64,000 bases of DNA from a virus. The stretch is from IMG/VR virus record IMGVR_UViG_3300042898_002514; one strand, 5' to 3'. Positions 2,661 to 50,100 of the stretch are shown piece after piece. The notes under the pieces were generated by a model, which worked only from the letters and a program-made list of their open reading frames with translations, did not search any database and had not been told where the DNA came from. Each line of letters opens with the position of its first letter. The first letter of the stretch is position 1. The position numbers and the translations under genes were made by a program.

Positions 2661-3224
2661 ATGAACATATTATTCCTTCCAATTGATATTGAAATTCCAA
2701 AGATTGATACATCAAAAATACAGTCTACAATTAACGTCATCAACAACCTAACCTACATAAAAACTGCAGAGTATCAACAGTATTGGGATACTTCTAGAAT
2801 TACTGAAACAGTTGATGATACTTTAAAATCTGTACTAGATCAGTTGCCTATAAGCAAAGTAACAAATGTATATTATAAAGAGCAAAGACAAGCTGTGTCA
2901 CCTCATTACGATGTATATCCAAATATGAAATTTGAAGAAGGAGAATACACTAATATTTTAGATAACGAACCTGCAGGGTATCGTCTAGTCCTAGAAGGGT
3001 CCACTGATGTACTTTATGTTAAAAGTGGAGGCACGTTTAAGTTAGCAGAATTGCCATCTGTGCCTTGTTGTTATCTTTTAAATACCACAGCAGGGCTACA
3101 CATGCTCAAGGATGATCCGGGCAGAAAGATTATCTATATTAGAGGATTTATTGATACAGCAAGGCATCAGACGCTGATAGAAAAAAGTCTCAAACGTTAT
3201 AAAAATTTAGCAATTATTGCATAA
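2661..3224 (+). CDS. 2OG-Fe(II) oxygenase-like protein, paralog family A
   Basis: HYD...H motif, N-term ILFLPIDIEIP, C-term SLKRYKNLAI; TAAATA just upstream. Confidence 0.65.
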   Translation: MNILFLPIDIEIPKIDTSKIQSTINVINNLTYIKTAEYQQYWDTSRITETVDDTLKSVLDQLPISKVTNVYYKEQRQAVSPHYDVYPNMKFEEGEYTNILDNEPAGYRLVLEGSTDVLYVKSGGTFKLAELPSVPCCYLLNTTAGLHMLKDDPGRKIIYIRGFIDTARHQTLIEKSLKRYKNLAIIA

Positions 3225-3228
3225 CATT

Positions 3229-3303
3229 GCCGCCTTTGTATAATAGAGAATACAGCTCTCTTCCAAAGTGCGAATAGGAGTTCGATTCCTAGAGGTTGCA
3301 CCA
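3229..3303 (+). pseudogene. chimeric pseudo-tRNA (TCC-like loop; 3' end copied from tRNA-Phe)
   Basis: Acceptor and T stems mispair; 3280-3304 matches 2599-2623 at 24/25 nt. Confidence 0.7.
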
Positions 3304-3348
3304 ACTAAGTTGGACTCTTAGAACTCTACATAATTAATAAATACCAAC

Positions 3349-3912
3349 ATGCAAAACTTTTATAAACACTTTCCAGAAATAGATAATGTATATTGGACTA
3401 ACTATTTTTTGAAAGAATTCATACCAAAATATAAAATTTTTGAACAATTGTCTAGTCCTTTATATATGATGTATTTTAAAAAAGATTTTTATAAAGATTT
3501 AGAAATATTAAAACTTAGTTCGTTGCTAGTTAGTAAACTAAAATTTCCACCGATTGAATATTTTTCAATATTTAAACACACGTATTCCCAGGCCATTCAT
3601 GCTGATGGTAAATCAACATTGAGATATGCAAGCTTCAACTTACCTCTCGTGGGGTTTGAAGGGACAAGGATGTGTTTTTATAATACAAAATCAAATGTTA
3701 TTCCTAAAGTAGCAGATGCTTATTATTTTAAAGAAGATGATGTATGTCTTGCTACAGAACTAGAAGGCAAGAATGAATGGACATTAGTAAACAGTTCAAT
3801 CCCACATAATATTGTGAATGTAGATTTTAATAATCCTAGAATAACAGTATGCATTAGATTTAATGGTAATCCAAAACTTGAGGATCTAATAACAAATGAA
3901 ATTCAATCCTAA
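3349..3912 (+). CDS. 2OG-Fe(II) oxygenase/cupin-like protein, paralog family B
   Basis: IHAD...IPHNIVN...RITVCIRF; TAAATA upstream; stop codon lies in a tRNA 3' remnant. Confidence 0.65.
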   Translation: MQNFYKHFPEIDNVYWTNYFLKEFIPKYKIFEQLSSPLYMMYFKKDFYKDLEILKLSSLLVSKLKFPPIEYFSIFKHTYSQAIHADGKSTLRYASFNLPLVGFEGTRMCFYNTKSNVIPKVADAYYFKEDDVCLATELEGKNEWTLVNSSIPHNIVNVDFNNPRITVCIRFNGNPKLEDLITNEIQS

Positions 3913-3923
3913 GGACGGCACCA
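3902..3923 (+). pseudogene. orphan tRNA 3' end (T-loop half + acceptor strand + CCA)
   Basis: ttcaatcct-aaggacggc-acca; complementary (one bulge) to gccgcct at 3229. Confidence 0.55.
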
Positions 3924-3944
3924 AAAAATATTTTAAAATAACTG

Positions 3945-3973
3945 TTGACAAGATAACGTAATGACTATATAAT
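3945..3973 (+). promoter_or_regulatory. sigma70-type promoter
   Basis: TTGACA-17-TATAAT with AT-rich upstream tract. Confidence 0.85.
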
Positions 3974-4529: not shown

Positions 4530-4731
4530 ACGTTCCGAGTGTCTTCGGATAGTGTGACCCGCACGATGAGAAGTAGTGTGACAACTACGGGTGGTAGTCT
4601 TTAAACCCAAAGGCCGCTAGCAATGCGAGAACGGTCCCTGTCGGGAAGCGGGTGGAAGGTACGAGTGAGAGGTATGATAGCGTCATATCTTTCTGTACTA
4701 TAATTACCGCCGGGGGACGTCAGAGCAACCA
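4530..4731 (+). ncRNA. candidate ~200-nt structured RNA (GTGACC..GATGAGAAG..CCGCTAG motif, long form)
   Basis: acgttcc/gggacgt closing stem, many hairpins, GC-rich, ends in ACCA. Confidence 0.55.
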
Positions 4732-4752
4732 GATTTTAATAAAGGAAACATA

Positions 4753-4965
4753 ATGAAACCAGGTCCAAATTACAAGATGTCATCTTTGACTAAAGCAAGT
4801 CTAGCAATGAGTAGAGTTCTAGATCCTCACAAGCGAGGTGAGTGGAAACGTGCCATGATTGATGCAGAGCTATGTGCCGCTGTTCAACCCAAGCGTGAAA
4901 CACGCAAACCGGGCAATGGTAATTTTACCACCCATGCATCTGGGACCGTATCTTCAGGAAGTTGA
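4753..4965 (+). CDS. hypothetical protein
   Basis: AAGGAA SD, 70-aa ORF. Confidence 0.65.
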   Translation: MKPGPNYKMSSLTKASLAMSRVLDPHKRGEWKRAMIDAELCAAVQPKRETRKPGNGNFTTHASGTVSSGS

Positions 4966-5263: not shown

Positions 5264-5339
5264 GGGGGATTGGTATACTTGGCTAACACACCTGGTTTGC
5301 AACCAGGAGCAAACGGTTCGAATCCGTTATCCTCCACCA
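5264..5339 (+). tRNA. tRNA-Ala(TGC)
   Basis: G3.U70 pair, cctgg-ttTGCaa-ccagg, ACCA. Confidence 0.93.
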
Positions 5340-5345
5340 AGCATT

Positions 5346-5419
5346 GCCCTTATAGTTAAATGGTATAACGGCGGTTTTGTAATCCGCAGTTTGCAGTTCG
5401 ATTCTGTGTAGGGGCACCA
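5346..5419 (+). tRNA. tRNA-Thr(TGT)
   Basis: gccctta/taggggc, gcgg-tttTGTaat-ccgc, ACCA. Confidence 0.9.
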
Positions 5420-5429
5420 ATATAGTCAA

Positions 5430-5464
5430 AAGATGTTGACAAACATCTTGTATAGTGCTATAAT
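5430..5464 (+). promoter_or_regulatory. sigma70 promoter with extended -10 and an inverted repeat over the -35
   Basis: TTGACA(5436)-17-TATAAT(5459), TG at the extended -10 position; aagatgtt-gaca-aacatctt palindrome. Confidence 0.85.
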
Positions 5465-5470
5465 AGTTTT

Positions 5471-5717
5471 GTTGTGTAGCAATACACAACCGGCAAAGTG
5501 AAAGGTAGATGAGAGAAGACACTACTGTTTGGCTTCATGCCAAATGGAACTTAACTCCAAATACTCTGAAAAAGTATCCGTGTCATTGTGTTCCGGCCCC
5601 AAAAGATATTTGTTTATTGATTACCGGAAATATAGTGACCCCTGTGGATTGTATATTGAGCATTGTTATTTGCACATTGTCCAGTCTTTTACTTGACCTT
5701 TCACTGAACCGTTTTTT
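5471..5717 (+). ncRNA. candidate ~245-nt sRNA/leader with 7-nt periodic UUG tract
   Basis: Starts at predicted TSS; agtgaaaggt/acctttcact long-range stem; U-tract end; TTG at 5649, 5656, 5663, 5670, 5677. Confidence 0.6.
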
Positions 5718-5731
5718 AACCTGAGGAAAAT

Positions 5732-5977
5732 ATGACATCAAGATTAACATCAGAATTAGCAGTAGAACAGATAGGCAATAGGTTTGACTTGGTACTAGTT
5801 GCCAGTCAGCGAGCCCGAGAGTTAAAAAACGGTTCAATGCCCAAAGTCGCTGAACCAGGCAAAACATTTATTTCTACAGCACTTCGAGAGATTGAAGAAG
5901 GCAAGTATACCTATAAAGATTATATTAATAAATTACCAAAAAAACGTAAAGGACAACGAGATGAATATTTCACTTAG
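5732..5977 (+). CDS. rpoZ: RNA polymerase omega subunit
   Basis: IGNRFDLVLVASQRARELKNG...ALREIEEG signature; GAGG SD. Confidence 0.9.
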   Translation: MTSRLTSELAVEQIGNRFDLVLVASQRARELKNGSMPKVAEPGKTFISTALREIEEGKYTYKDYINKLPKKRKGQRDEYFT

Positions 5978-6533
5978 AAAAGCCAGCGCCCTACAAAACA
6001 GCATCAATGATGCTATCAAGGGCATTAAAATCACAACATCGATTGATCTCAATGAATTTCAAGATGTAGCAGTAGAACTAAAGAATGCCAACGATACGCT
6101 GTTTAACAACGACAGTCGGAGACAACGCCTGCTGTTGGCCTTGTATAACATTCGTGGTCTTGTGGGCAGTGCCAACGCACAAAGCGGCATTGATTTGAAA
6201 TTGGCCACTGCTGCCTTTGTGGACAAACGTGTTGCTCAACTTGAAGGTCTTGTAGTAGATCCTGTAACTAATCTTGCCGTGATCAACGGTAAGTTGGACA
6301 AGATTCGCAACGACAAGAGCGAAAGTAGCCGTAGCCGTATCTATGGATTTAGTGACACAGTGTCTACTAATGTCATCGGTCACGAACAGCTAGATGTGAT
6401 TAGTACAGAGATTAAAAATCTCAAGAAACAAAAGCAGAAACTCAACGATGAAGTACTTGAGTTAAATATCAAAACAGAGATTCCACTCAGTGAAGAAGTA
6501 GTGGCAACATTGCAATCAGAAGGTTTAGTTTAA
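5961..6533 (+). CDS. hypothetical coiled-coil protein
   Basis: 190-aa ORF from ATG 5961. Confidence 0.8.
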   Translation: MNISLRKASALQNSINDAIKGIKITTSIDLNEFQDVAVELKNANDTLFNNDSRRQRLLLALYNIRGLVGSANAQSGIDLKLATAAFVDKRVAQLEGLVVDPVTNLAVINGKLDKIRNDKSESSRSRIYGFSDTVSTNVIGHEQLDVISTEIKNLKKQKQKLNDEVLELNIKTEIPLSEEVVATLQSEGLV

Positions 6534-7086: not shown

Positions 7087-7163
7087 CGGAGTGTGGCGCA
7101 GTCTGGTAGCGCACCTGGTTTGGGACCAGGGGGTCCAAGGTTCGAATCCTTGTACTCCGACCA
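7087..7163 (+). tRNA. tRNA-Pro(TGG), second copy
   Basis: cggagtg/tactccg, cctgg-ttTGGga-ccagg, ACCA. Confidence 0.93.
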
Positions 7164-7176
7164 ATTTTTTAAATTT

Positions 7177-7773
7177 ATGAAAATAACAAAATGTAATCTA
7201 TTTCCAATTTCACTTTTTGAAGTTTCAGAGTTTTTGACTGTAACTCAGTGCAATGATATTGTCACTTACATACGAGGATTACCTAAAAAACCTTATCCGG
7301 CAATGACTGGGAAATCGTTTACTACATTTAATATTTCTAATAGATTATTAGAAGACATTCAACAACATGTAAAATCATGTGCTAATATGTTATCATCATT
7401 ATCTGATATTGTGTTAGAATATGAAAAAACATCTGGTTACAACTGTGGTAAACTAGGTAATTCTTGGGCTAGTTTTCAATATAAAGATAGTGCATTATTA
7501 ACCCATACTCATTATTCTAGTTTAATATCGGGCGTATTGTATTTGCAAGTAGATAATAATAGTAGTAAAATTATTTTTAATAATGTTAATCCTTTTTTAG
7601 AATATCTACCTAAAAAACATCTTACAACATATACATACAATAAAATGAGTTTCGAACCCACTGTTGGGAAATTAATAGTATTTCCCAGCTGGTTACCACA
7701 TGGTTCAGACACTGAGTTGAATAAGTCGGACGAACGAATAATTATTAGTTTCAATACTGAATTAATAATTTAG
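7177..7773 (+). CDS. putative 2OG-Fe(II) oxygenase (TIGR02466-like)
   Basis: HTH..S.ISGVLYL...GKLIVFPSWLPH...ERIIISFN. Confidence 0.85.
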   Translation: MKITKCNLFPISLFEVSEFLTVTQCNDIVTYIRGLPKKPYPAMTGKSFTTFNISNRLLEDIQQHVKSCANMLSSLSDIVLEYEKTSGYNCGKLGNSWASFQYKDSALLTHTHYSSLISGVLYLQVDNNSSKIIFNNVNPFLEYLPKKHLTTYTYNKMSFEPTVGKLIVFPSWLPHGSDTELNKSDERIIISFNTELII

Positions 7774-23449: not shown

Positions 23450-24859
23450 ATGCCATTACAAATACGCAGAGGGACCACTGCACAACGACTTGCAATCACA
23501 CCATTGACCGGCGAGCTGATTCATGATACTACTACCGGACAATTGTTTGTGGGTAATGGTACAACTGCTGGCGGTGTCACTACTACTGGTATTTCTTTAG
23601 AAGATGCGGCTGATGCCGCAGCATCATTGTTTACTACAGGATCGCATTCCGGAATCACATTTGCTTATAATGACGCAGCTGGTCGAATAGATGCTACTGT
23701 TACTGTGGCAGCTACTGGTCCGTTTGATGGCGATTTAACAGGTAGTGTATTTGCAGATGATTCTACCTTGCTAGTTGACGGCACCGGAGGGGCTCTGGTT
23801 GGTTCTTTAAGAACTTCAGGTGACGTGTATATTACTAAAAATTCGTATTCTGGTACGTTTGGAAATGGATTAACATATGCGCAACACCACTCAACTGTTG
23901 ATGCAGTAAATTTTAATTTTTTAAGAACTCGGGGAACAGATATTGCACCCACCGCTGTTGCCAACGGCGACGATATTGCTGATTTAAATTTCATAGGTCA
24001 CGACGGTACCAATAGAGTGTCAATTGGTGGTATAACTGCTAGAGTTTCGGGAGCTGTGTCATTGGGAATTGTTCCAGGCGAACTTACGTTTGATACTCGT
24101 AGTACAGCAGGAGTATTGTCGGAAAAAGCAGCATTAACATCAGACGGTATATGGAAAATCAATCAACTTGGTGCGCTTTCGGGTACAACCATAAATGTTG
24201 TTGACAATAATACTATTACATTAGGTGATGTTAGACTGAGTCAAGATGGACTTTCTACTATAAACACTAATGCTACTTTGATATTATCTGCAAACGGAAC
24301 TGGCTCAGTTGACATTGAATCTCTTAGAATTATAGGTAGTACTATATCAACTACAGATTCTAGCAGCATCACAGTTTCTCAAGCATCTACCTTTAGCAGT
24401 AATCTAACTGTTGACGGCACACTAACAGTCGGTGACAGTATTGTACAAAACAACGCTAACAGAGACTATGTCAGTACCACATTACAGACACAGGGAGTTG
24501 CTCGAGTAGTAGAGGGAGTACAAAACGGTACCTATACTCAATTGGTTACAAATACAGCAGAGACATATACAACCATTTCTTATAACTCCACAATCTACAA
24601 AGGTTGTCGGGCAACATTCAAAGTCCATCAGTCTACCAATGTCTATATTAGTGAGGTGTTGTTGGTCAATGACACAACCACAGTCACTATTGTAAATGCT
24701 CAGGCTACAGCGGCAGCGATCAACTTCAGTATCATTGGTTCGATTACTGCAGACTACGACAGTGCATCTGGTACGATTAGACTAAGACCAATTACTAGTA
24801 CATCGATTACATCTGGTCTTAATTTATTTTGGACTGTAAGTTACCAATTGTTCACATAA
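23450..24859 (+). CDS. tail fibre/receptor-binding protein (Mtd-N-like N-terminus)
   Basis: LQIRRGT....PLTGELIHDTTTGQLFVGNG; Gly/Thr-rich. Confidence 0.8.
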   Translation: MPLQIRRGTTAQRLAITPLTGELIHDTTTGQLFVGNGTTAGGVTTTGISLEDAADAAASLFTTGSHSGITFAYNDAAGRIDATVTVAATGPFDGDLTGSVFADDSTLLVDGTGGALVGSLRTSGDVYITKNSYSGTFGNGLTYAQHHSTVDAVNFNFLRTRGTDIAPTAVANGDDIADLNFIGHDGTNRVSIGGITARVSGAVSLGIVPGELTFDTRSTAGVLSEKAALTSDGIWKINQLGALSGTTINVVDNNTITLGDVRLSQDGLSTINTNATLILSANGTGSVDIESLRIIGSTISTTDSSSITVSQASTFSSNLTVDGTLTVGDSIVQNNANRDYVSTTLQTQGVARVVEGVQNGTYTQLVTNTAETYTTISYNSTIYKGCRATFKVHQSTNVYISEVLLVNDTTTVTIVNAQATAAAINFSIIGSITADYDSASGTIRLRPITSTSITSGLNLFWTVSYQLFT

Positions 24860-24873
24860 TTGACAAAAAAGAC

Positions 24874-24901
24874 TTGACTCTAGTATTATTTCCTGTATAC
24901 T
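24874..24901 (+). promoter_or_regulatory. sigma70-like promoter
   Basis: TTGACT-16-TATACT directly before the tRNA-like RNA. Confidence 0.6.
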
Positions 24902-34940: not shown

Positions 34941-35310
34941 TCGTATCCTAGAAACTTTTAACCGCTGGAATGTACCTAAAGAGTTTGCCGAGCCAATGTA
35001 CAATTATCTTGTTCATGGGTTTAGTCCGGGCGGATGTTTTACCGCGGTGCTAGCCAATGACTTTCACCGTGCTATACGTAGCAGTCATCCTGGCAACACT
35101 GTCGAAGCATTTAAGGCTCTGTCTGGTTGGATAGATGAATGCATACCTCCCGAAACAAAAGGTAACTATAATAATGTTGAAGTTTGGTGCAGTCTACCTG
35201 CAGATGTTCGTAGATCAATATTAGAAGACTGCGAAATAATCTATACTGAGCAACAAGAAATTATGATGGCTCTGCAAAGTAAACCCACAGTTGAACCTGT
35301 CTTTTTTTAA
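34915..35310 (+). CDS. hypothetical protein
   Basis: 131 aa; YLVHGFSPGG.FTAVLAND. Confidence 0.7.
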   Translation: MKLTQYSRNRILETFNRWNVPKEFAEPMYNYLVHGFSPGGCFTAVLANDFHRAIRSSHPGNTVEAFKALSGWIDECIPPETKGNYNNVEVWCSLPADVRRSILEDCEIIYTEQQEIMMALQSKPTVEPVFF

Positions 35311-36356
35311 TGAAAGAAACTATGATTAAACGCATAGGCTTTGCCTGCAAATGGATCAATGATCCTGAAGAAGTCAACGGCATGAAGATCAATGCCAAAG
35401 ACCGTGACTTAAATACTGGTGCTACTACAGTTAGGTGGTTGCGTGAACATCCCCAAGAAGCAGAACAGCGACTTTGGGACTTGATGAAACGAAATATTGA
35501 TGCCTGCACCAAGTTGGTGGCCAGGGTAGGAACACTAGATGAAGATCTTAGAATGGTACGACTCAGCAGCGATATACTGCCTGTATACACTGAGCCTAGT
35601 TGGAAGTGGTTTTGGCGGCAGCCCGATGTTAGAGCCTATGCAGAAACAGCATTTAGAACAGTGGGAGATTTGGCTCGCCAGAACGGTGTTCGCCTGTCTT
35701 TCCACCCTGGTCAGTTTTGCGTGTTGGCATCTATCAACCCTGGTATTGTAGAACGAAGTATCGAAGAGTTTGAGTATCATGTGGACATGGCTCGCTGGAT
35801 GGGCTATGGCAAGACGTTTCAAGACTTTAAGATCAATGTGCATATCTCGGGTAAGCAAGGTCCACAAGGTGTTCGTGATGCTCTAAGCAAAATGACACCC
35901 GAAGCCCGTAACTGTCTTACCATTGAGAATGACGAAATGACCTGGGGCATTGACTCTAGCATTGAGTTGGTCAAGGACTGTGCCCTGGTCATGGACATAC
36001 ATCATCATTGGATTAACTCTGGAGAATATATTGAAGCAACTGACGACCGTGTTAAGCGGATTATTGATAGCTGGCGTGGCGTTCGCCCTGTTTTACATTA
36101 TAGTGTTTCACGGGAAGACTGTCTTATTGACCATCCCGGACATATCCGTCCCAATCTTTCGACCCTCTTAGAGCAGGGCTACAAAAAACAAAAGCTCAGA
36201 GCACATTCAGAATTTTACTGGAATACAGCAGTAAATGAATGGGCACTGAGCTTTCGAGACTCGTTTGACATCATGTGCGAAAGCAAGGCTAAGAATCTAT
36301 CCAGCTTTGCACTCTATGAACAAAGTCTTAAGCAGCCGGCTTTACTTTTGGCTTAA
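35310..36356 (+). CDS. uvsE: UV-damage endonuclease
   Basis: RIGFACK, RLSS, RLSFHPGQF, IENDE, DIHHH, HS, CESKAK. Confidence 0.92.
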   Translation: MKETMIKRIGFACKWINDPEEVNGMKINAKDRDLNTGATTVRWLREHPQEAEQRLWDLMKRNIDACTKLVARVGTLDEDLRMVRLSSDILPVYTEPSWKWFWRQPDVRAYAETAFRTVGDLARQNGVRLSFHPGQFCVLASINPGIVERSIEEFEYHVDMARWMGYGKTFQDFKINVHISGKQGPQGVRDALSKMTPEARNCLTIENDEMTWGIDSSIELVKDCALVMDIHHHWINSGEYIEATDDRVKRIIDSWRGVRPVLHYSVSREDCLIDHPGHIRPNLSTLLEQGYKKQKLRAHSEFYWNTAVNEWALSFRDSFDIMCESKAKNLSSFALYEQSLKQPALLLA

Positions 36357-38253: not shown

Positions 38254-41200
38254 ATGGCAAGAAAAATTATTAATATTGGTGCAATTGGCAACGACGGCAC
38301 CGGCGACAGTATCAGAGACAGTTTTAGATCTGTCAACGACAACTTTAGAGAACTCTATAGTTCACTAGGACTAGGTGAAAAACTCACATTCATAGGTCTA
38401 GATGATACACCCGAATCATTTCCTAACGATTATGAAAATGCGTTGGTTGTGATCAATGATACCACAGACGGCGTGGTTTTCAAAAAACTAGAAGCTGGCG
38501 TAGGTGTTCAAATTGATTTTGATACCAGTCAAAATTCCATTGTGGTCAACAGCTTGTTTTCAGATATTTCAGGCGATCCTAATCCAAATCTAGGAGGACC
38601 AGTTAATGCTCAAAGTGGTGGAGTAAGATATCCTATTGGAAATTTACCCGATATAGGATCTTTTTCTGAACTCACTGATTCAATTGGCAGAATAAACACA
38701 ATTCACGGATCCACTGCCACAGAAACAAACAGACTGGCGGCCAATAAGGGCTATGTAGATTCCAAGATATCCCTGCAGGGCATAGATGCTGTTGATCCTG
38801 CTACCAATACAACCAACACTGCATTTGGTACCATGACCGGGCCGTTGATACTTTCAAGAGACCCTGTGGATGATGATGATGTGGCCTACAATGGTTTGAT
38901 AGCTGCCACCAAACGATATGTTGACAGTTCCGGTTATAGCAGCACAGTGAATCTGTATGTGAGTACAGCCGGGTTAGATGATCGACCAGGTGTTGGATTA
39001 GACCGACAAGGTCGCAGTTTGGCCTATGCATATAAGACACTAGAAGCTGCTCTTAAACGTGCAGAAGAATTGGTGCTGGAAGCACCGTTAGAAATTGGCC
39101 CTTACAAGAAAGTTCTTACTTGGAACAACGGTGATGAGCCTTGTACTCTAGTAGAAATTGACGATACCAGTGCTACCGCAGGCACTGGTTTCAGTCCTGC
39201 ATTTATTTTTATGAATGTGGACACAGTTGAAATTGTCAGCGGTGGCCTAAATTATCTACCCGGTGACATACTTACTGTGGCCACTGGTACCGGTACAGCA
39301 GCAAGATATCAGGTGCTGTCGGTTAGTCCTGGCGGCTCAGGAGGACGAGGACCAGTTACTGCCATTAGACAGATCACTGGCGGCAACTACAGCGTGTTGC
39401 CCGCACCAGTGGCTCCAGCAGCCACTACCTGTCCCGGCAGCAGTGTTGGTGTTAGAACTGGATGCACACTAAATCTCACATTCAAAGTGGCCAGAGTGCA
39501 GGTTAACTCGGGAGGCCGTGGAACTGGATACGGTTTAGTGTCAGTGAGATTTGTTGGTGGTGGTGGTGGTGGAGCCTTTGGTGTAGCAGATGTTAGCGCA
39601 GTTGACGGCGGCATAAACAGCATCAGTATCACCAACGGAGGAACAGGGTTTACTTCGCAGCCATCTATACTTGTGAGTCTTCCAAGATTTAGATTGTTTA
39701 CCAGCGGTTACAGAACAGACTTTACTGGAAATCCTGCATTGAGCACAGTGGCTGCTAACGCAGCCAAAGACATACGAGAAGGACTATATCTTCGTGGGGA
39801 AACGTCTGGAGCTCTTGCACAGATTCTAGCACACGACGGTACTTTGGACACGTCCGGCAATGAAGAATTTGATGTTGATGTTGTCAGTGGTGAATTTGTT
39901 GTTGGCGAGGTTATTTCATTCGGTGATGTAACCAAACGTATTCAAATTTCTGTATTTGTTGAAACTGGCATTTACCTAGAAAATTTACCATTACGTGTGC
40001 CTCAAAACGTGGCAGTAATAGGTGATGAATTTCGTAGAACTATTATTAGACCACAGATAGGCTTTGACAGTTCCAGTCCCTGGGCATTTTTGAATTTTAG
40101 ACGAGATCCTGTGGTAGACGGACTGACTGTGGCAAATGAACTGTATGGTTATCACTATCTAGCAGATTCCACACAGCCTGTTTATCCCCTGATCAATAAC
40201 AAAGGTAACTATACCAGTGCTGCACGACTGATCACATTGAATAGAAAGTTTATTCAAGATCAGGTCATAGGTTGGATCAATAATCAAATTTTAACAAACA
40301 CTGCACCATTTACATCTGCATTTGACTACAATGAAGATATCTGTTATAGAGACGTTGGCTTGATCATAGACTCTATGGTATTTGATTTGAAATGGAGTGG
40401 ACAGAATCGCACAATTTCTGCTGCATTGAAATACAAGGGACCAGCAGTTCCGGGCAGTAATCCTGCACTAGCTATTGGTGCGCAACTGAGTCAGACTGTG
40501 GCCGGTATTCAACGTATCAACACCTTGGCCCAAGACATTATCGACAATGTGAGTATTGCGGCACTGTATACATTGTCCGGTACTGTGGCCACTACTGCCA
40601 CAGTACCAACACTACAGACTCTAGACGAAGGTCTAGTGGCAGAAGTAGGATCCGATACTGTGATCACATTGTTGACCAATGCCATAGTTGATGTTATCAG
40701 CAACAGTGGAACAGTAAACTATCCCAAAGACAACGGCGATATGGACATGTTCTTGTGTAACGATGCTGTAATCCTAAGAGCCATGACCTTCCAGGGTCAA
40801 GGTGGATTTGCAATGGTATTAGATCCAGAGGGACAAATCCTTGCTAAATCTCCGTACTGTCAAGAATCTGCATCCTTTAGTAGAAGTATAAATGCCAAGG
40901 CATTTTCTGGTGGTATGTTTGTAGATGGATTCACCGGCAATCAGAAATTTGTCATAGACAGCAAAGACAGTAATATATTTTTACGAGTATCGGGACTGCT
41001 GAGACCGCCTAATACTCCCTGCAGCTTTATTGTCAGTGGTGAAATTTACAGAATAAACTACATTAGAGGGTATACATTTGGAACAGGTGCTGCTACTGCT
41101 ACCACAGGTGGATTCAGCACAGCTCAGTTCATCTTGGATGAGCTGACACCTTACACACCTGCTGCTGGATCACGTGCCTGTACATTTAGTACTCCAAATA

Positions 41201-44200
41201 TAACCACTGCATCTGTTCACGAACTACAACCAGGTGCCATTGTGAAATTCAGTTCTACTGGAACACTGCCAACTGGTATCGCTGCCAATCAAGAATACTA
41301 TGTGTTACTGGCTGGATTTACGCTTACTCAATTCAGAGTTGCCGCAGTAGCTGGCAGTACCACAGCAGTGACTTTTGTAGGTGCCGGCTCGGGTACACAC
41401 AGTTTTATCAGAGTGTTTGAAGTTCTTATGCCCGGTAATCGTTCCATGCTTAGTAACGACTTTACCCAGGTCTGTGATCTAGGCTACGGACTTATAACCA
41501 CCAACGGCGGATTGGCCGAAGCTGTGAGTATGTTTACCTACTACTGTCAAATTTCCTACTATTCATTGAACGGTGGACAGATTAGAAGCGTGGGTGGATC
41601 TAGTGCTCACGGAAACTTTGCATTGGTAGCGGAAGCCAGTGATCCATTAGAAGTTCCGACTCCCACAGGATTTTACACCGATCTTGCACAGACCGCAACT
41701 GTTTATGCTGCATCAGTTGATACGTTGAACGAAAAGGGAGAAAATATATTATATGTGACCTATGATGATTTCTTTCCTTTGCCGAACAGTGAATTAGAAA
41801 TCAATCATGGAGGCCAAATTGTACGATATGTTGTCACTACGGCACAGATCAGCGATGTTGCCACCAAACGTGCAAAATTAAATATCAGCACCGGCGGCGG
41901 ACTTTTGGCAGCAGTGCCCCATGGACAACGTGTTACAATTAGAAACAACAGTTTCCATGTGTTACACGGAGACATTGTAGAGGTAGCAACTAGACCTAGT
42001 ACTGCTCTGATACTAAATGACAGTAATTTTGTCTACAGACAATTGGAATTCACAGACTATGATTCCACATATGATCTAGAAACCTATACTATCACAGGTA
42101 TAAACTATGGCACTGGGGTGATAACCACTGATATCAATCATAGACAACGTGCAGGATATCAAGTGAGATTTGTCAAACCTCCAGGCGCAGTGTTGCCCAA
42201 TGAGATTACTGCAGGTGTCACAGTTGACGACGGTGTCATATACTATGTCAAGACTGCACCAACTCCTACCACATTTACCATTTCTGCTACAGAAACAGGC
42301 TCAGGCATAACCACATTTACTGGATCGGCGGTGTCGGGAAGTCCCACAATGGTTCCTTACGGTCTAGCCCTGGCACAAGGTAGAGAAAATTATGATTATA
42401 TAGAAATCACTGTGTATGAGCCGGGTGTAGAAACAGGTGCGGCCAATACTGTAACCAGTATAAGCACTGCGGCCAATACGTTTACCAAAAACAGTCACGG
42501 ACTCACAGCTGGTCAACCTGTGAGATTCAGTGCCAGTGTGTTGCCTGGAGGACTAACTGCAAACACAGTGTACTTTGTAACCACTTCTGGACTAACTGCC
42601 AATGATTTCAGTGTTAGTACCAGAGCGTTAGTAGACAGTACATTTATAGGTGTGCCTACTTCTTTGGCATTTTCAGTGGGGCCATCCCTGGGAACATCTA
42701 CTGGCGCTGGTCCTTATTTTACAACCATTTCAAATATCATCTGTTTGGAAAATCTTATATTGGGATCAAGTTTGGTAGCAAAGCCAAATATTACCGGTGT
42801 TAGCGCAGTAGGTGACGGTGTTACCTGCACATTGACGTTTACCGCTCAAAACGTTCCTCCATATTTGCCATTCCAGTTGATTACTGTGAGCGCATTTGCT
42901 GTAGGTGGTGTGCCATTCAATGGCGCACAAACCGTGGTGACCTGTACCAATACCACTGTGACATTTGCCAGCGCAACCATTGCTACAGACAGCGGTGGTG
43001 TCATAGCTACTGGTGGTACAGGCGCATTAGGTGCGGACTCAGTGATTTATTCTGTTTCTGCAGCTACCAACAGCATTGTGGTGCAGTCTTCTACAGCAGC
43101 CACAACAGGAACAATAGCCTTTCAACTAGAAGGCAGTGTGTTAGATATCACCACAACCGGTACTGCCGTAACCTACAAACTGATTCAAGGCGAACGTGGT
43201 GATGCTACCTTTGGTATAGGAAACCTAGGCGGCAGTGACGGTGATAGATTGTTGACTGGTATAGCTGCTGGTACATTTTATAGATTTGTACACGAAGGCC
43301 AAGAATATGAAATAACCAATTATCAAGACAGTCTTACCACTGGTCAAGACTATGCACTACTAACAGTCAGTCCAGCATTGACACGCAGTGTGGTCAGATT
43401 CAATGATACGCCTACTCTAAAGGGATCGGTTCCTGGACCAAGCGCACTATCCGATGGTACACTGACCATTAGAATCAGTTTGACTCGTGTTACGTCACAT
43501 GATCTATTGGAAATTGGTACAGGTGGTTATGCCGATACCAACTATCCTAGCGAAATCTATGGACCTGCCGTTAATTCAATTATTTCAGTACCTACATATG
43601 CCACACAGGCAGATACAGAAACAGGCGAACTAGTATTACGTGCGCAGATGCAGGAACGAGGCTCGGGGCGTACATTCTTTGTGACCACTGACCAATTTGG
43701 TAACTTTAACGTTGGTCCGTTCTTCCGTGTTGATCAGGGTACTGGTACTGTTACATTCTCAGCTTCAATTGCGCTGAGTCAGTTAGACGGTCTAGGATTT
43801 AAACGTGGTACAACAATTTCTGAATTCTCCACAGCAATGGACGAAGGTCGTGTTGACGCGGTGCCTACAGAATCAGCGGTTAGAACCTACATTGGTCGTA
43901 GATTGGGATTGGACTTCAATGGCAACATTGTTGCCCTAGGCGATCGTGTGCCAAACAATGTGGGCTTTATGGCTCTTAGTGGTGACTTGGCGTGGGTTGG
44001 ACCTGCTGACATGGACATGAATTCGTACAAGATTGAAAATCTTGGGGTGCCTACATTAGCCAGTGATGCTGCCAGACTGGACAGTATTACAATTACTAAT
44101 CTAAAAGATACCGACGGAACCAGCCTATTTAATTTTTCACAGTCACAGGCAGGTCAATTGTTAGCCTTGGATGGTACGGGTAATACAATTATCAATGTGA

Positions 44201-45675
44201 CACCTACAGGTGAAGTTACTTTTGATATATTGTTAGGTGATAGTACTACCAACATCATAAGAACCACTATCAGTGATGGTGTCATTGACGATGCCAATAT
44301 CATGTCCACTGCGGCCATTGATCAGGCCAAGTTGAGTTTGAATGATGCTTATGCTACTATATCAGCCAGTATTACCAATGTGACTGCAACTGGTAGCGGC
44401 AGTACAGCTACTATAACATTCCCTGTAGCACAGTCCAGTGCTCCGTTTACAGCGGGACAAAAAATTGTAGTTACAGGATTGTCTGTGAGTGGATACAACG
44501 GAACTTATACCGTTGCAACCTGCAACACCACTGTTGTTACCTATAGTAATACAACTACAGGATCAGCTATCAGTGGAACTGTAGCAGCTCTACGAGGTAT
44601 ATCAAGTTTTGACAGTGCTCAATTTACACTAACCAACGGTTGGGCTACAATCAAAGACAACGGTCTAGCATTGACCAAATTAGCACAGGTGGGAGCAGAT
44701 AGACTATTGGGCAACAGTACAGCTTCAACAGCCGATGTTGCTGAAGTGAGCTTTGCCACAGTGGTTGATGAAGGCCTGGCTTTGAGACTGTCGGACTATG
44801 GCAGCGCCACAAGTACTGGTTATCTACGACACACAGGCGGCGATGGCACTGTTCGTGCAAGTTGGGCATACAGCATTGTTGACGAAGCTTCTGCTGCCAC
44901 TGTGAGCACTTTGGTTAAACGTGATAGCAACGGAGATTTTGCTGCACGTAATGTAGATCTTGCTCAGCTTAAAATTGACAGCATATTATCCATTGACAGC
45001 AGCGCCAGCGGCACTGGTGGATTTCTTCAGTATTATGGTTATCTAGGACAAGTGGGTATTTACATAGGTGATGGTACAGTACCAGCTAGCGATAAGAAAA
45101 CTTACTACAACAACACACAGCACGTATTCCGCAGTCAAGACAGTGCCACAACATTTGCCACTCTCGACTCTACTGGTATTAGTGTAGCAGCATTAAAAAG
45201 TTGTACCAGTATCAGCACAGGCGCTGTGACAACACCTGGAACTATAGAGGGCTATTGGTCATTGAGTGGTAGCAGTAGATTCCAAGCTACCTATGCTGCT
45301 GACCTAGCAGAATACTACGAAGGTGACAAGGAGTATGCTGTGGGCACTGTGTTGATATTTGGTGGAGACAAAGAAGTTACAATAGCAAATCGACAAGGTG
45401 ATCATAGAGTGGCTGGTGTAGTAAGCGATAATGCTGCCTATTCCATGAATGGTGATTGTCCGGGCTTTAAAAATCAAGTGGCTCTACAGGGTAGAGTTCC
45501 TTGTCGAGTAGTTGGAAAAATTGAGAAGGGAGACCTGCTGATTGCCAGCAACATTGCAGGCTGTGCTGTAAGTGCAGGCGGTGATGCTAGAACAGGCACA
45601 GTGATTGGCAAAGCACTAGAAAACTACAATTCAGATCATATTGGCACTATTGAAGTGGCCGTGGGAAGAAACTAA
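38254..45675 (+). CDS. giant baseplate/tail structural protein with C-terminal autoprocessing (peptidase G2-like) chaperone domain
   Basis: T4 gp9/gp10-like N-term (INIG..NDGTGDS.R..F..VN.NF.ELY); C-term ADLAEYY...VALQGRVPCRVVG. Confidence 0.85.
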   Translation: MARKIINIGAIGNDGTGDSIRDSFRSVNDNFRELYSSLGLGEKLTFIGLDDTPESFPNDYENALVVINDTTDGVVFKKLEAGVGVQIDFDTSQNSIVVNSLFSDISGDPNPNLGGPVNAQSGGVRYPIGNLPDIGSFSELTDSIGRINTIHGSTATETNRLAANKGYVDSKISLQGIDAVDPATNTTNTAFGTMTGPLILSRDPVDDDDVAYNGLIAATKRYVDSSGYSSTVNLYVSTAGLDDRPGVGLDRQGRSLAYAYKTLEAALKRAEELVLEAPLEIGPYKKVLTWNNGDEPCTLVEIDDTSATAGTGFSPAFIFMNVDTVEIVSGGLNYLPGDILTVATGTGTAARYQVLSVSPGGSGGRGPVTAIRQITGGNYSVLPAPVAPAATTCPGSSVGVRTGCTLNLTFKVARVQVNSGGRGTGYGLVSVRFVGGGGGGAFGVADVSAVDGGINSISITNGGTGFTSQPSILVSLPRFRLFTSGYRTDFTGNPALSTVAANAAKDIREGLYLRGETSGALAQILAHDGTLDTSGNEEFDVDVVSGEFVVGEVISFGDVTKRIQISVFVETGIYLENLPLRVPQNVAVIGDEFRRTIIRPQIGFDSSSPWAFLNFRRDPVVDGLTVANELYGYHYLADSTQPVYPLINNKGNYTSAARLITLNRKFIQDQVIGWINNQILTNTAPFTSAFDYNEDICYRDVGLIIDSMVFDLKWSGQNRTISAALKYKGPAVPGSNPALAIGAQLSQTVAGIQRINTLAQDIIDNVSIAALYTLSGTVATTATVPTLQTLDEGLVAEVGSDTVITLLTNAIVDVISNSGTVNYPKDNGDMDMFLCNDAVILRAMTFQGQGGFAMVLDPEGQILAKSPYCQESASFSRSINAKAFSGGMFVDGFTGNQKFVIDSKDSNIFLRVSGLLRPPNTPCSFIVSGEIYRINYIRGYTFGTGAATATTGGFSTAQFILDELTPYTPAAGSRACTFSTPNITTASVHELQPGAIVKFSSTGTLPTGIAANQEYYVLLAGFTLTQFRVAAVAGSTTAVTFVGAGSGTHSFIRVFEVLMPGNRSMLSNDFTQVCDLGYGLITTNGGLAEAVSMFTYYCQISYYSLNGGQIRSVGGSSAHGNFALVAEASDPLEVPTPTGFYTDLAQTATVYAASVDTLNEKGENILYVTYDDFFPLPNSELEINHGGQIVRYVVTTAQISDVATKRAKLNISTGGGLLAAVPHGQRVTIRNNSFHVLHGDIVEVATRPSTALILNDSNFVYRQLEFTDYDSTYDLETYTITGINYGTGVITTDINHRQRAGYQVRFVKPPGAVLPNEITAGVTVDDGVIYYVKTAPTPTTFTISATETGSGITTFTGSAVSGSPTMVPYGLALAQGRENYDYIEITVYEPGVETGAANTVTSISTAANTFTKNSHGLTAGQPVRFSASVLPGGLTANTVYFVTTSGLTANDFSVSTRALVDSTFIGVPTSLAFSVGPSLGTSTGAGPYFTTISNIICLENLILGSSLVAKPNITGVSAVGDGVTCTLTFTAQNVPPYLPFQLITVSAFAVGGVPFNGAQTVVTCTNTTVTFASATIATDSGGVIATGGTGALGADSVIYSVSAATNSIVVQSSTAATTGTIAFQLEGSVLDITTTGTAVTYKLIQGERGDATFGIGNLGGSDGDRLLTGIAAGTFYRFVHEGQEYEITNYQDSLTTGQDYALLTVSPALTRSVVRFNDTPTLKGSVPGPSALSDGTLTIRISLTRVTSHDLLEIGTGGYADTNYPSEIYGPAVNSIISVPTYATQADTETGELVLRAQMQERGSGRTFFVTTDQFGNFNVGPFFRVDQGTGTVTFSASIALSQLDGLGFKRGTTISEFSTAMDEGRVDAVPTESAVRTYIGRRLGLDFNGNIVALGDRVPNNVGFMALSGDLAWVGPADMDMNSYKIENLGVPTLASDAARLDSITITNLKDTDGTSLFNFSQSQAGQLLALDGTGNTIINVTPTGEVTFDILLGDSTTNIIRTTISDGVIDDANIMSTAAIDQAKLSLNDAYATISASITNVTATGSGSTATITFPVAQSSAPFTAGQKIVVTGLSVSGYNGTYTVATCNTTVVTYSNTTTGSAISGTVAALRGISSFDSAQFTLTNGWATIKDNGLALTKLAQVGADRLLGNSTASTADVAEVSFATVVDEGLALRLSDYGSATSTGYLRHTGGDGTVRASWAYSIVDEASAATVSTLVKRDSNGDFAARNVDLAQLKIDSILSIDSSASGTGGFLQYYGYLGQVGIYIGDGTVPASDKKTYYNNTQHVFRSQDSATTFATLDSTGISVAALKSCTSISTGAVTTPGTIEGYWSLSGSSRFQATYAADLAEYYEGDKEYAVGTVLIFGGDKEVTIANRQGDHRVAGVVSDNAAYSMNGDCPGFKNQVALQGRVPCRVVGKIEKGDLLIASNIAGCAVSAGGDARTGTVIGKALENYNSDHIGTIEVAVGRN

Positions 45676-47198: not shown

Positions 47199-50100
47199 AT
47201 GGCAAAACAGAATATTAATGTAGGCACCACAGCCAACGACAAGAAAGGCGATAGCCTACGAGCTGCGTTTCAAAAAGTAAATGCTAACTTCACAGAACTT
47301 TACACAGCACTGGGAATAAATGCAGATGTCAATTTAAATATTGGCGCATTTGAATTCACTGGTAGCACCCTGAGTACCACAGACAGCACACCCGTTGTAA
47401 TTGATCAAGCAACCACCATAACCAGTAACTTAACAGTTGGCGGAGATATGTTGCCTAGTGTGGCCAATGGTGGCGATCTAGGTAGTTCAACATTGCCTTG
47501 GCGCAGTCTGTATGTCAGCAATAACACAATTTTCCTAGGTGGCACAGCATTATCTGTAGATAGTCAAGGTAATCTATTAGTGGGAGGGCAGTTTATAGCA
47601 GATGTTGGCACAGCAGCCTGGAACAGTATCACAGGCAAGCCCACATTCGCTACAGTGGCTACTACAGGTGCCTATGCTGACCTAACTGGCAAGCCAACTA
47701 TACCAACCAGCTTTGACAGCTTAGTCAACGGTGCTAACACAGTTAGTCTTGGCTCAGATGGTAAACTAACACTACCAAACGGTTCTACCATAGGAGATGC
47801 TGATACTTCCGCTGGTGTCCCAATAACCACAGCCCGTGGCACAATATTGTTGGGCAACCTAGCAGAGTGTGCAGGCGGGGAAAGTCATTTCCACATAATG
47901 AAAGGCGGCCAGCAGGCCATTGATTTGTTCTTGGGTGATGACAGCAACTATGTAAAACTGCCAAGCACTGGTGGGGTTGAAATAGCCACACAAAATTTCA
48001 ATCAATATTCTTGGATCTTTAGCACAGATGGTAATTTAACTATCCCAGGTGATATCCGCAGTGAAGGCAATATCAATATTGACATCAACCTGTCAGACTC
48101 AACTCTGCACCGTTGGCAGTTCGGAGAAGATGGTGAGTTGACATTCCCTAACGGTGGTCAAATATCAAATTATCCAGGCGGCGTAGGTGTCAGCAACGAC
48201 AGTTGGTTTGTGACACCCGACAACGGTACCGGCGGTATTTCCAGCCAAGACGGTCAGCAATATATACAGATAAACGATAATTTGCATGTTGAAATCGGCA
48301 CAAGTTACGGCACAGAAAATGAATCTATTTGGCAATTTGGCCTTGATGGCAATCTAACACTGCCAGTAGGTGGAGACATTTTAGACAGCACAGGCACAAG
48401 TGTGTTAGGCGTTGGTGGCACAGGCGATAGTCTAACCAGTAACAATGACATCAACATCACAGTCAACAGTGAAGACAGCAGTAGCTATACTTGGAACTTT
48501 GGACAGACAGGTGATTTAACCGCTCCTGGCGACATTGTTGTCGGCGGCGTCGATGGCGGACACATTTACATAGACAGTACCGAAGGTGCCAATACCAGTG
48601 TGCGTTGGATCAATATGCCTGTAAATGAAGACGCTAGTATCATTAGAGCCTACACTGGCAATCCCGATGAGGAAACAGGTCTAAATCGAGGTCGAATTCA
48701 ACTAGCGTGGCAAGACAGTGATCGTAGCGGTCTAAGAATTATATCATATGATCGCACTGATTCAGAAGATACAGTTGAACACGAATGGACCTTCCAAGGC
48801 GACGGCGGATTACAATTCCCAGATGGTACTACACAGACCACAGCCTACACTGGCGGTGGCGGTAATGCCAACACTGGAGACTTTACATTTAGCGAAGACA
48901 CTATCACAAACGGTGACGGACTGATACTGTCCACCAATAGAGGCACATTGGCCATGGGTACTGACATGGAAGTGCCAGGTGTAGCACAACACTTCCATAT
49001 TGCCTTTGACGGTAGTAACAGTAATCCACCCGCCAGTGACCTGTTCCTAGGTGATGACCACAACTATGTTAAATTGCCTGGATATGAACTCAACCCAACT
49101 GCTCAATTTGGTGTGGAGATTGGCACAGATAATAGAAACCTTGGCCCACAGAATATTGAAGTTGGTACGGTAGATGAACTTGTGCCACCGGGTGGCGTGT
49201 GGCGGGTGTTTATTGACCACGAGACCTATCCTAACTTGGGCTCCGCTGTCAGCGTAGGTGATACAGTGACCACATCATGGGGAACACCCATAACTGCCAC
49301 AATCACAGACGTCGTTGAAGAACCTGGTAATTGGTGGAAAATTCATGTTGCTCAAGATATTACCGCTGGATTTCTTGATGAGGGTGAAACAGTTTCATTT
49401 GGTGCTTCAGGAGACAGTCATGTTTGGCGTTTTGGCACAGATGGTGATTTAACTATTCCAGGTGATATTAAGAGCGAAAACGACATCAACATCACAGTCA
49501 ACAGTGAAGATAGCAGTAGCTATACTTGGAACTTTGGACAGACTGGTATACTAACAGCACCAGATGATATTGTCACTGGTACAAATGGTGGTAGATTTGT
49601 ACAAGACTGTGCCGATGGCACAACTTCAATGCGTTGGATCAATGTAGAGGTTGACGAAGATAGCACACAACTTATTCGAGCCTACAGTGGTGAAGGTGAC
49701 AGTGACGAACGAGCACAGATTAAACTAAACTGGCAGGATGAAGATCGCAGTGGCCTAACCATTAGATCATTTGATCGCACAGATACAGAAGATACTGTTA
49801 GCCATGATTGGAAATTTCAGGGCGACGGTAGCATAGAATTCCCAGACGGCAGTATACAGACCACAGCCTACACTGGACAGAATAGTGGCGCAATAGGTAC
49901 TTTTTTTGTCGTAGTCAACGAAGACGGCACAGTCAGCAAATCCACAGACGGTGTCACTTGGACCACGGCAGTTGATCTAGTTCAAGGCATTGGTCGTGTG
50001 GCCACCAACGGTGTCACAGTGGCCATGATTCAAAGCGATCAACTGAGTTGGACCACATTCGCTGGGCTGGAAGCATCAACATACGTAAGCGGCAGCAGTG

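Follow-up and report, generated by a model that had tools for sequence, protein, structure and literature searches.

Large RNAs with an intricate fold and no assigned function are uncommon, and to our knowledge every one investigated to date has brought new biochemistry to light. GOLLD and ROOL, two such RNAs of 400-800 nt that adjoin tRNA genes in phages or prophages, have a complex conserved fold and no known function, and protein-free RNA folding and self-assembly have been reported for them. Phage tRNA islands are widely thought to counter host tRNA-targeting defences. Other RNAs engage a multi-subunit protein through short motifs repeated on one molecule. This is the case for the targets of TRAP, with GAG/UAG triplets at 2-3 nt spacing, and for CsrB and RsmZ, of which CsrB presents GGA in hairpin loops. 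The T4 gp32 protein covers ~7 nt per monomer. Cold-shock proteins (CspB) bind heptanucleotides (PMC1904285, PMC1636342), and each face of the HutP hexamer binds three XAG triplets with four-base spacers, a linker joining the clusters (PMC2425495).

The window analysed here is a stretch of 64,000 nt of viral DNA (IMG/VR record IMGVR_UViG_3300042898_002514). Its first 9.4 kb hold 26 tRNA genes, all on the + strand (ARAGORN, Rfam), and constitute a phage tRNA island. An earlier note on this DNA had proposed a promoter-driven, structured, non-coding RNA of ~245 nt within this region, and our analysis bears this out, with a length of ~247 nt and a fold backed by 76 homologs. The features of the locus are as follows.

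5264..5419, + strand: tRNA-Ala(TGC) and tRNA-Thr(TGT), found by ARAGORN and Rfam, directly 5′ of the RNA locus
5430..5449, + strand: 8-bp inverted repeat AAGATGTT/AACATCTT; the −35 hexamer falls in its loop and left arm
5436..5464, + strand: predicted sigma-70 promoter TTGACA-17-(TG)TATAAT, with a 12/12 consensus match plus an extended −10 TG
5471..5717, + strand: structured RNA of ~247 nt; the homology model spans 5466-5714
5471..5490, + strand: P1 hairpin; 10/10 pairs changed on both sides among the 76 homologs
5497-5506 with 5696-5705, + strand: P2 closing stem; compensatory changes in 5/9 pairs
5510-5520 with 5684-5695, + strand: P2b closing stem, nearly invariant
5527..5545, + strand: P3 variable hairpin of the minimum free energy (MFE) fold; 6/6 pairs covary
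5561..5577, + strand: P4 variable hairpin of the MFE fold; stems differ among lineages, loop kept
5580..5638, + strand: P5, a long hairpin whose internal loop has one invariant side (GGAAAUAU), with a hairpin loop of ~27 nt; compensatory changes in 9/13 pairs
5610..5619, + strand: motif pair of the P5 loop, TTG 5610 and TTG 5617; TG at both sites in 74/76 homologs, always 7 nt apart
5639..5683, + strand: junction strand from P5 to P2b, 45 nt, carrying six in-phase YUG
5684..5705, + strand: 3′ strands of P2b and P2, containing invariant CTTGACC
5712..5717, + strand: U-tract, read from the sequence, 3′ of the closing stem
5732..5977, + strand: rpoZ (RNA polymerase omega); Pfam RNA_pol_Rpb6 5e-15, E. 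coli omega PDB chains ~5e-11
5961..6533, + strand: gene of a 190-aa helical protein, a constant neighbour of the RNA

The tRNA-Ala/tRNA-Thr pair also precedes the RNA in most homologous loci, and in nearly all loci the element lies within tRNA arrays and on the tRNA strand. The gene directly downstream in the window is a phage rpoZ, as the earlier note had recognised: its product contains the RNA_pol_Rpb6 domain and is similar to bacterial omega. It is followed by the 190-aa gene, which overlaps its end by 17 nt; this overlap suggests that the two genes are translationally coupled.

A search with the omega protein led to 38 IMG/VR loci, 11 of which had a clearly homologous upstream element, and a 20-nt pattern from the conserved 3′ block matched at least 113 viral stretches. 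In the fetched IMG/VR loci an nhmmer profile gave 120 significant matches (E <= 1e-3), ~110 of them at E < 1e-19; the weaker remainder are fragments or distant relatives, and almost all of the pattern-matched stretches proved to be full-length copies. The family occupies more than 110 IMG/VR phage loci, these copies having come from a single DNA pattern, and the length of the RNA across it is ~250-280 nt. The alignment used below comprises 76 distinct homolog sequences. When cellular genomes were searched with the conserved 3′ block, at least 120 matches were returned, and those listed were all chance matches by nhmmer.

The RNA is a new family, absent from the Rfam 15 catalogue. A scan of the whole window at gathering score returned tRNAs only, a scan of 5380-6000 at E<=10 gave one chance miRNA match, and a scan of 13 homologous loci at E<=5 gave no match on the RNA element. 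Outside the unnamed candidates of a catalogue of 10,006 candidate virus RNAs (PMC10690425), we found no description of it in the literature. One locus, L096, carries on its reverse strand two modules of the RNA plus the 190-aa gene, at 580-1442 and 3109-3971, 2.5 kb apart on a 6.9-kb contig and each followed by tRNA-Met; this double module may be a paralogous duplication or a metagenome assembly chimera.

The carriers of the family are freshwater jumbo phages that place the RNA among their tRNA genes. CheckV estimated relative contigs of 140 kb to be ~40% complete and contigs of 343-364 kb to be 98-100% complete, and it is these latter sizes that identify the carriers as jumbo phages. As to cultured relatives, a nucleotide search of GenBank phages returned tRNA matches only, and a protein search with the 190-aa protein returned no match. 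GOLLD (RF02032) matches were found elsewhere in the tRNA arrays of five relatives, never on the RNA element, and none was found in the window. Complete copies with 198-229 bits lie at L004:1205-1670, L091:6657-7114 (− strand), L020:7588-8052 and L030:3365-3830, and an end-truncated copy at L029:1-287 scores 106 bits, below the gathering score. In L020, L029 and L030, GOLLD is ~70-260 nt upstream of the RNA, with a tRNA between them in L029. The family also strengthens a view of jumbo-phage tRNA islands as cassettes of stable RNAs (tRNAs, tmRNA, GOLLD and the present RNA) and not as simple codon supplements.

The 246 nt from 5471 have a minimum free energy of −74.2 kcal/mol, with z = −5.5 against dinucleotide shuffles. 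In the consensus fold of the 76 homologs, 97.2% of the cells pair, versus 33-45% in controls with the 3′ partners shifted by 1-3 columns. Compensatory changes on both sides occur in 31/49 pairs, and on each of the five measures all 500 shuffles fall short. It is the + strand that folds as RNA, since several invariant G-U pairs would turn into C-A mismatches in its complement. In the predicted overall fold, a hairpin at the 5′ end precedes a four-way junction closed by ~20 bp. Both helices that the earlier note had drawn, the hairpin at the 5′ end (P1) and the long-range closing stem 5497-5506/5696-5705 (P2), are conserved in the homologs with compensatory changes, in P1 in every pair. On the 5′ side an invariant AGA bulge separates P2 from P2b (5497..5520), and the distant relatives L020, L029 and L030 possess compensated versions of both stems. 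Most relatives carry an extra hairpin, P6, within the junction strand, and the window is without it. As expected of a structured non-coding RNA in general, compensatory changes stand well above the controls and no reading frame is conserved. Kink-turn, hammerhead and RNase P readings of GGUAGAUGAG are at odds with the consensus and find no backing in Rfam.

The most distinctive property of the RNA is a 7-nt register of UG dinucleotides. The sites of the tract are CTG 5642 and TTG 5649, 5656, 5663, 5670 and 5677, and a further two TTG occupy the P5 hairpin loop; the earlier note had placed all of these correctly. It had also counted GTG 5635 and CTG 5642 as in-phase members, and here only CTG 5642 is conserved with the array; GTG 5635, although in phase, belongs to the P5 stem and is outside the conserved array. 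In all 76 homologs TG is invariant at the six tract sites, whereas the intervening three or four bases are free to vary, giving a pooled unit of approximately A-Y-U-G-Y-N-N. The register is also kept in L020, L029 and L030, whose neighbour protein is ~50% identical and in which the sole change is UAG at repeat 4; in lineage B one site reads CCUG. P6, in relatives that have it, is inserted precisely between repeats 4 and 5, and four separate lineages that lack P6 (the window with L001, L056, L097, and L042 with L133) keep the exact 7-nt step. Among 20,000 dinucleotide shuffles of the RNA, not one contained an in-phase run of five TTG at any period from 4 to 12, and the tract is the sole in-phase TTG run of four or more across the 64-kb window. 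A chance origin of the heptad is excluded, and the 7-nt spacing is, by these comparisons, a selected feature.

The tract is likely to be single-stranded. The earlier note had called it unpaired, and indeed no conserved helix covers it: the consensus fold and covariation scan of the 76 homologs revealed no covarying helix there. Thermodynamic folding, however, gives it a mean unpaired probability of only ~0.45. An all-against-all covariation scan for pseudoknots or tertiary pairs with the tract yielded only 3-bp candidates with a single covarying pair. A kissing contact between GCAAU of the P1 loop and AUUGC of the heptads was also considered and rejected, as the loop variants (GCAAU to GAAAU) are uncompensated in the heptads. 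No complementary CAA arrays at 7-nt spacing were found in the window.

Among the described systems, the HutP sites of the Bacillus hut leader are the nearest precedent that has been solved. They resemble this array in having invariant triplets, four variable bases, a 7-nt period and more than one cluster with a linker (PMC2425495); in the distant relatives L020, L029 and L030 one triplet, the fourth only, is even UAG. However, the triplets here are YUG, so the NAG that identifies HutP sites, and of which A and G are recognised specifically, is not found; there are eight repeats (2 + 4 + 2) versus 3 + 3, and whereas the HutP sites belong to a terminator leader, these are carried by a stable RNA with a four-way junction, in its junction strand and one loop. 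With TRAP targets and with CsrB and RsmZ the RNA shares short repeated motifs on one molecule, but neither the motif nor the spacing of TRAP is present, and GGA hairpin loops of the CsrB type are absent from the sequence and the alignment. Like the T4 gene 32 operator and Csp sites, it has ~40 nt of weakly structured RNA beside a folded element, and the tract would have room for about six copies of a protein that binds single strands with a footprint of 7 nt, like that of gp32. Those binders are only weakly sequence-selective, though, while UG is invariant here; moreover, the RNA is no leader of an SSB or Csp gene, and a phage Csp gene is not universal. The likeness to GOLLD and ROOL lies in the tRNA-island location, the complex conserved fold and a function that is not known, whereas the present RNA is ~250 nt long, has another fold and matches neither Rfam model. 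An abundant stable RNA encoded beside an omega gene might plausibly target host RNA polymerase, as do 6S RNA and Ms1. But the present RNA folds into a multi-branched junction and does not have the rod shape with a central bubble, there is no RF00013 match, and about half of the loci here are without the omega gene.

Transcription in the window would start near 5471, as predicted from the promoter spacing, and a comparable promoter is found in the equivalent position in 60/76 homologs. The consensus sigma70 promoter and the 8-bp inverted repeat over the −35 box had both been read correctly in the earlier note. In 32 of 55 distinct homologous promoters the −35 box is likewise bracketed by a perfect inverted repeat, 5 bp or longer, with differing, lineage-specific arm sequences. 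Several of these repeats are followed by a T-run and several read AAAAAGNC...GNCTTTTT; such versions look like terminators of the upstream tRNA transcripts in which the loop is the −35 box of the next promoter. At the other end, the U-tract in which the transcript had been said to end is present in the window, but only 33/76 homologs have one (>=6 T in 8), and no canonical terminator was called at 5712-5717.

Two other readings of the segment were considered. One takes the ORF 5509-5724 (71 aa) for a small membrane protein gene. Its ATG, which lies within the conserved GGUAGAUGAG, has AAAGG nearby, and in the window it opens a 71-codon frame with a hydrophobic C-terminus. But the start is ACG or AAG in 13/76 homologs, the frame after it runs for anything from 4 to 76 codons (median 11), and it is base-pairing, rather than codons, that governs the substitutions. 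The comparative data already refute the coding reading, and we give it practically no weight; the claim that the region is non-coding stands, the ORF being unconserved. The other reading is a cis-acting leader, riboswitch-like or a protein-controlled 5′ UTR, for rpoZ and/or the 190-aa gene, as the earlier note had offered for rpoZ. The next gene on the same strand is indeed rpoZ or the 190-aa gene in 75 of the 76 distinct homologs, the upstream promoter is the only obvious one in most loci, and no canonical terminator follows the RNA. Where both the RNA 3′ end and the 190-aa gene could be located, they are 21-27 nt apart without rpoZ, 61-73 nt with an intervening promoter and 227-268 nt with rpoZ between them. 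On the other hand, rpoZ is found in only about half of the RNA loci and occurs without the RNA in more than 20 loci, including L012-L019, and in L063 the order is rpoZ, 190-aa gene, tRNA-Met, RNA. A promoter overlaps or follows the RNA 3′ end in 17/76 loci. In 13 homologs the RNA's own TTGACC, in the 3′ strand, doubles as the −35 box of a promoter for the downstream gene, with a TATAAT following at 17 nt, and in four copies (L137, L146, L115 and L063) a distinct promoter lies 3′ of the RNA, with full consensus and a preceding T-run in the first three and TTGACA-17-TATACT in L063. No promoter precedes the RNA in 16/76 loci, and several promoterless copies begin right behind a tRNA (copies starting 1-25 nt after a tRNA 3′ end are those of L137, L146, L056, L115, L054, L063, L041 and L029), which indicates that they are co-transcribed with the tRNAs and then cut out. 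Furthermore, no alternative pairing reaches the ribosome-binding site. Neither a fixed 5′ UTR position nor a shared transcript is found across the loci; a leader role is improbable, and the proposal of a protein-controlled rpoZ leader is not supported. The locus comparison shows the RNA to be independent of rpoZ, that is, free-standing and not an rpoZ leader.

The chief competing reading is an RNA-only architecture, whether fold or assembly, like that of GOLLD and ROOL, in which the UUG would pair with CAA or pack in tertiary or quaternary contacts, and folding or self-assembly would be protein-free. It is a real though minor possibility. These phages already carry one ornate RNA, GOLLD, in the tRNA arrays of L004, L091, L020, L030 and L029; many junction nucleotides are invariant and the P2b helix nearly so; and the CAA motifs that the alignment shows to be conserved in the P1 loop, the P3-P4 junction and the P6 loops could pair with UUG. 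Yet the tract covaries with no other segment, the change of GCAAU to GAAAU in the P1 loop meets no compensation in the heptads, two or three CAA elements face eight UUG, and helix geometry offers no obvious reason for a strict 7-nt register. The RNA might instead be a decoy or substrate mimic, its AUUG repeats soaking up a host ribonuclease or an RNA-targeting defence protein. Its place within a tRNA island, with the anti-defence role ascribed to such islands, would suit this, as would units that often read A/U-U-U-G after a purine, loosely like the preference of RNase E. The invariant letters are, however, the second U and the G, not the positions most important for RNase E; one site in lineage B is CCUG; and a simple decoy does not need a large conserved four-way junction. 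We consider a decoy quite improbable.

Of the readings, the sponge or scaffold for an oligomeric RNA binder that the earlier note had put forward is the best fit. We put the probability at about one half that this is a free-standing, stable, structured non-coding RNA that serves in trans as a scaffold or sponge, its heptads docking a partner that is multimeric or binds cooperatively. We infer that the partner is a protein and that the RNA acts in trans. A strict 7-nt register in which only U and G are fixed is hard to obtain from helix geometry, and would follow naturally from a partner with repeating subunits. The window copy would be transcribed from its own consensus sigma-70 promoter, and other members would be co-transcribed with tRNAs and released by tRNA end-processing. 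The eight YUG triplets of the junction strand and the P5 loop would then dock the partner, one unit per 7 nt, much as HutP reads XAG-N4. As both ends of the tract are anchored at the junction, it would form a closed loop long enough for six units.

A more specific form of this proposal, which we regard as unlikely in its full detail, is that the RNA is the core of a hitherto undescribed phage ribonucleoprotein, in which the 42-45-nt junction strand wraps a ring-shaped or cooperative protein and which retunes host transcription or RNA metabolism. Each subunit would take one YUG, and the two P5-loop sites would add to binding; the particle would act during jumbo-phage infection in company with the 190-aa protein inherited alongside it and, often, the phage omega. 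The RNA family is abundant, with more than 110 copies and 309 partner-gene loci in IMG/VR, and well backed by covariation, and eight UG dinucleotides in a fixed 7-nt register are an unusually explicit clue to mechanism, which makes the function directly testable.

Ring-shaped or periodic RNA binders were sought as candidate partners in contigs of relatives. HutP (PF09021) was not found in the phage contigs of five relatives, one of them ~98% complete, nor were Hfq and CsrA in the contigs of four relatives, again including one ~98% complete. A cold-shock (CSD) gene was present in 3/9 relatives' contigs and in 2/3 of those that are at least 98% complete; it is missing from a contig that is 99% complete. 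In a complete 353-kb relative, a canonical CspA-like cold-shock protein (PF00313, 8e-31) is encoded at L351:1501-1692 (G005 contig 24710-24901), and two other large relatives gave weaker CSD matches.

The 190-aa protein has relatives at 309 IMG/VR loci. From the best 80 of these 309, retrieved by the protein alone, 69 had enough upstream DNA, and in all 69 the RNA was located 21-268 nt upstream of the gene. This linkage is suggestive of a functional tie rather than proof of it, because all these phages are one lineage with a conserved gene order. The predicted fold (pLDDT 90) consists of long helical hairpins, and the net charge by residue count is about zero. No relative of known function was found in Pfam, PHROG or PDB, and structure and profile searches found no recognisable RNA-binding fold; charge and fold both weigh against the docking proposal. 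Leads on its function from Pfam, PHROGs, PDB profile, Foldseek against PDB, ESM Atlas and a wide VIA-align search came down to helical-hairpin look-alikes, the structure 3kdq, to which no function is assigned, and a weak hint of DUF6847.

Other features of the window were noted in passing. A second unannotated, apparently structured segment, GTGACC...GATGAGAAG..., is located after tRNA-Ser at 4530-4731 (also 1190-1253); it is without an Rfam match, and by eye a homolog lies upstream of rpoZ in L014 (~4700-4900). A 2OG-Fe(II) oxygenase gene (7093-7773) begins within the tRNA island and adjoins tRNA-Pro, and a gene for a UvdE-type UV endonuclease is found further on, at 35310-36356. There are also two ORFs of ~2,500 aa, at 38254-45675 and 47199-54881; the first has a T4 gp9/10-like N-terminus, and its product is therefore probably a baseplate or fibre protein.
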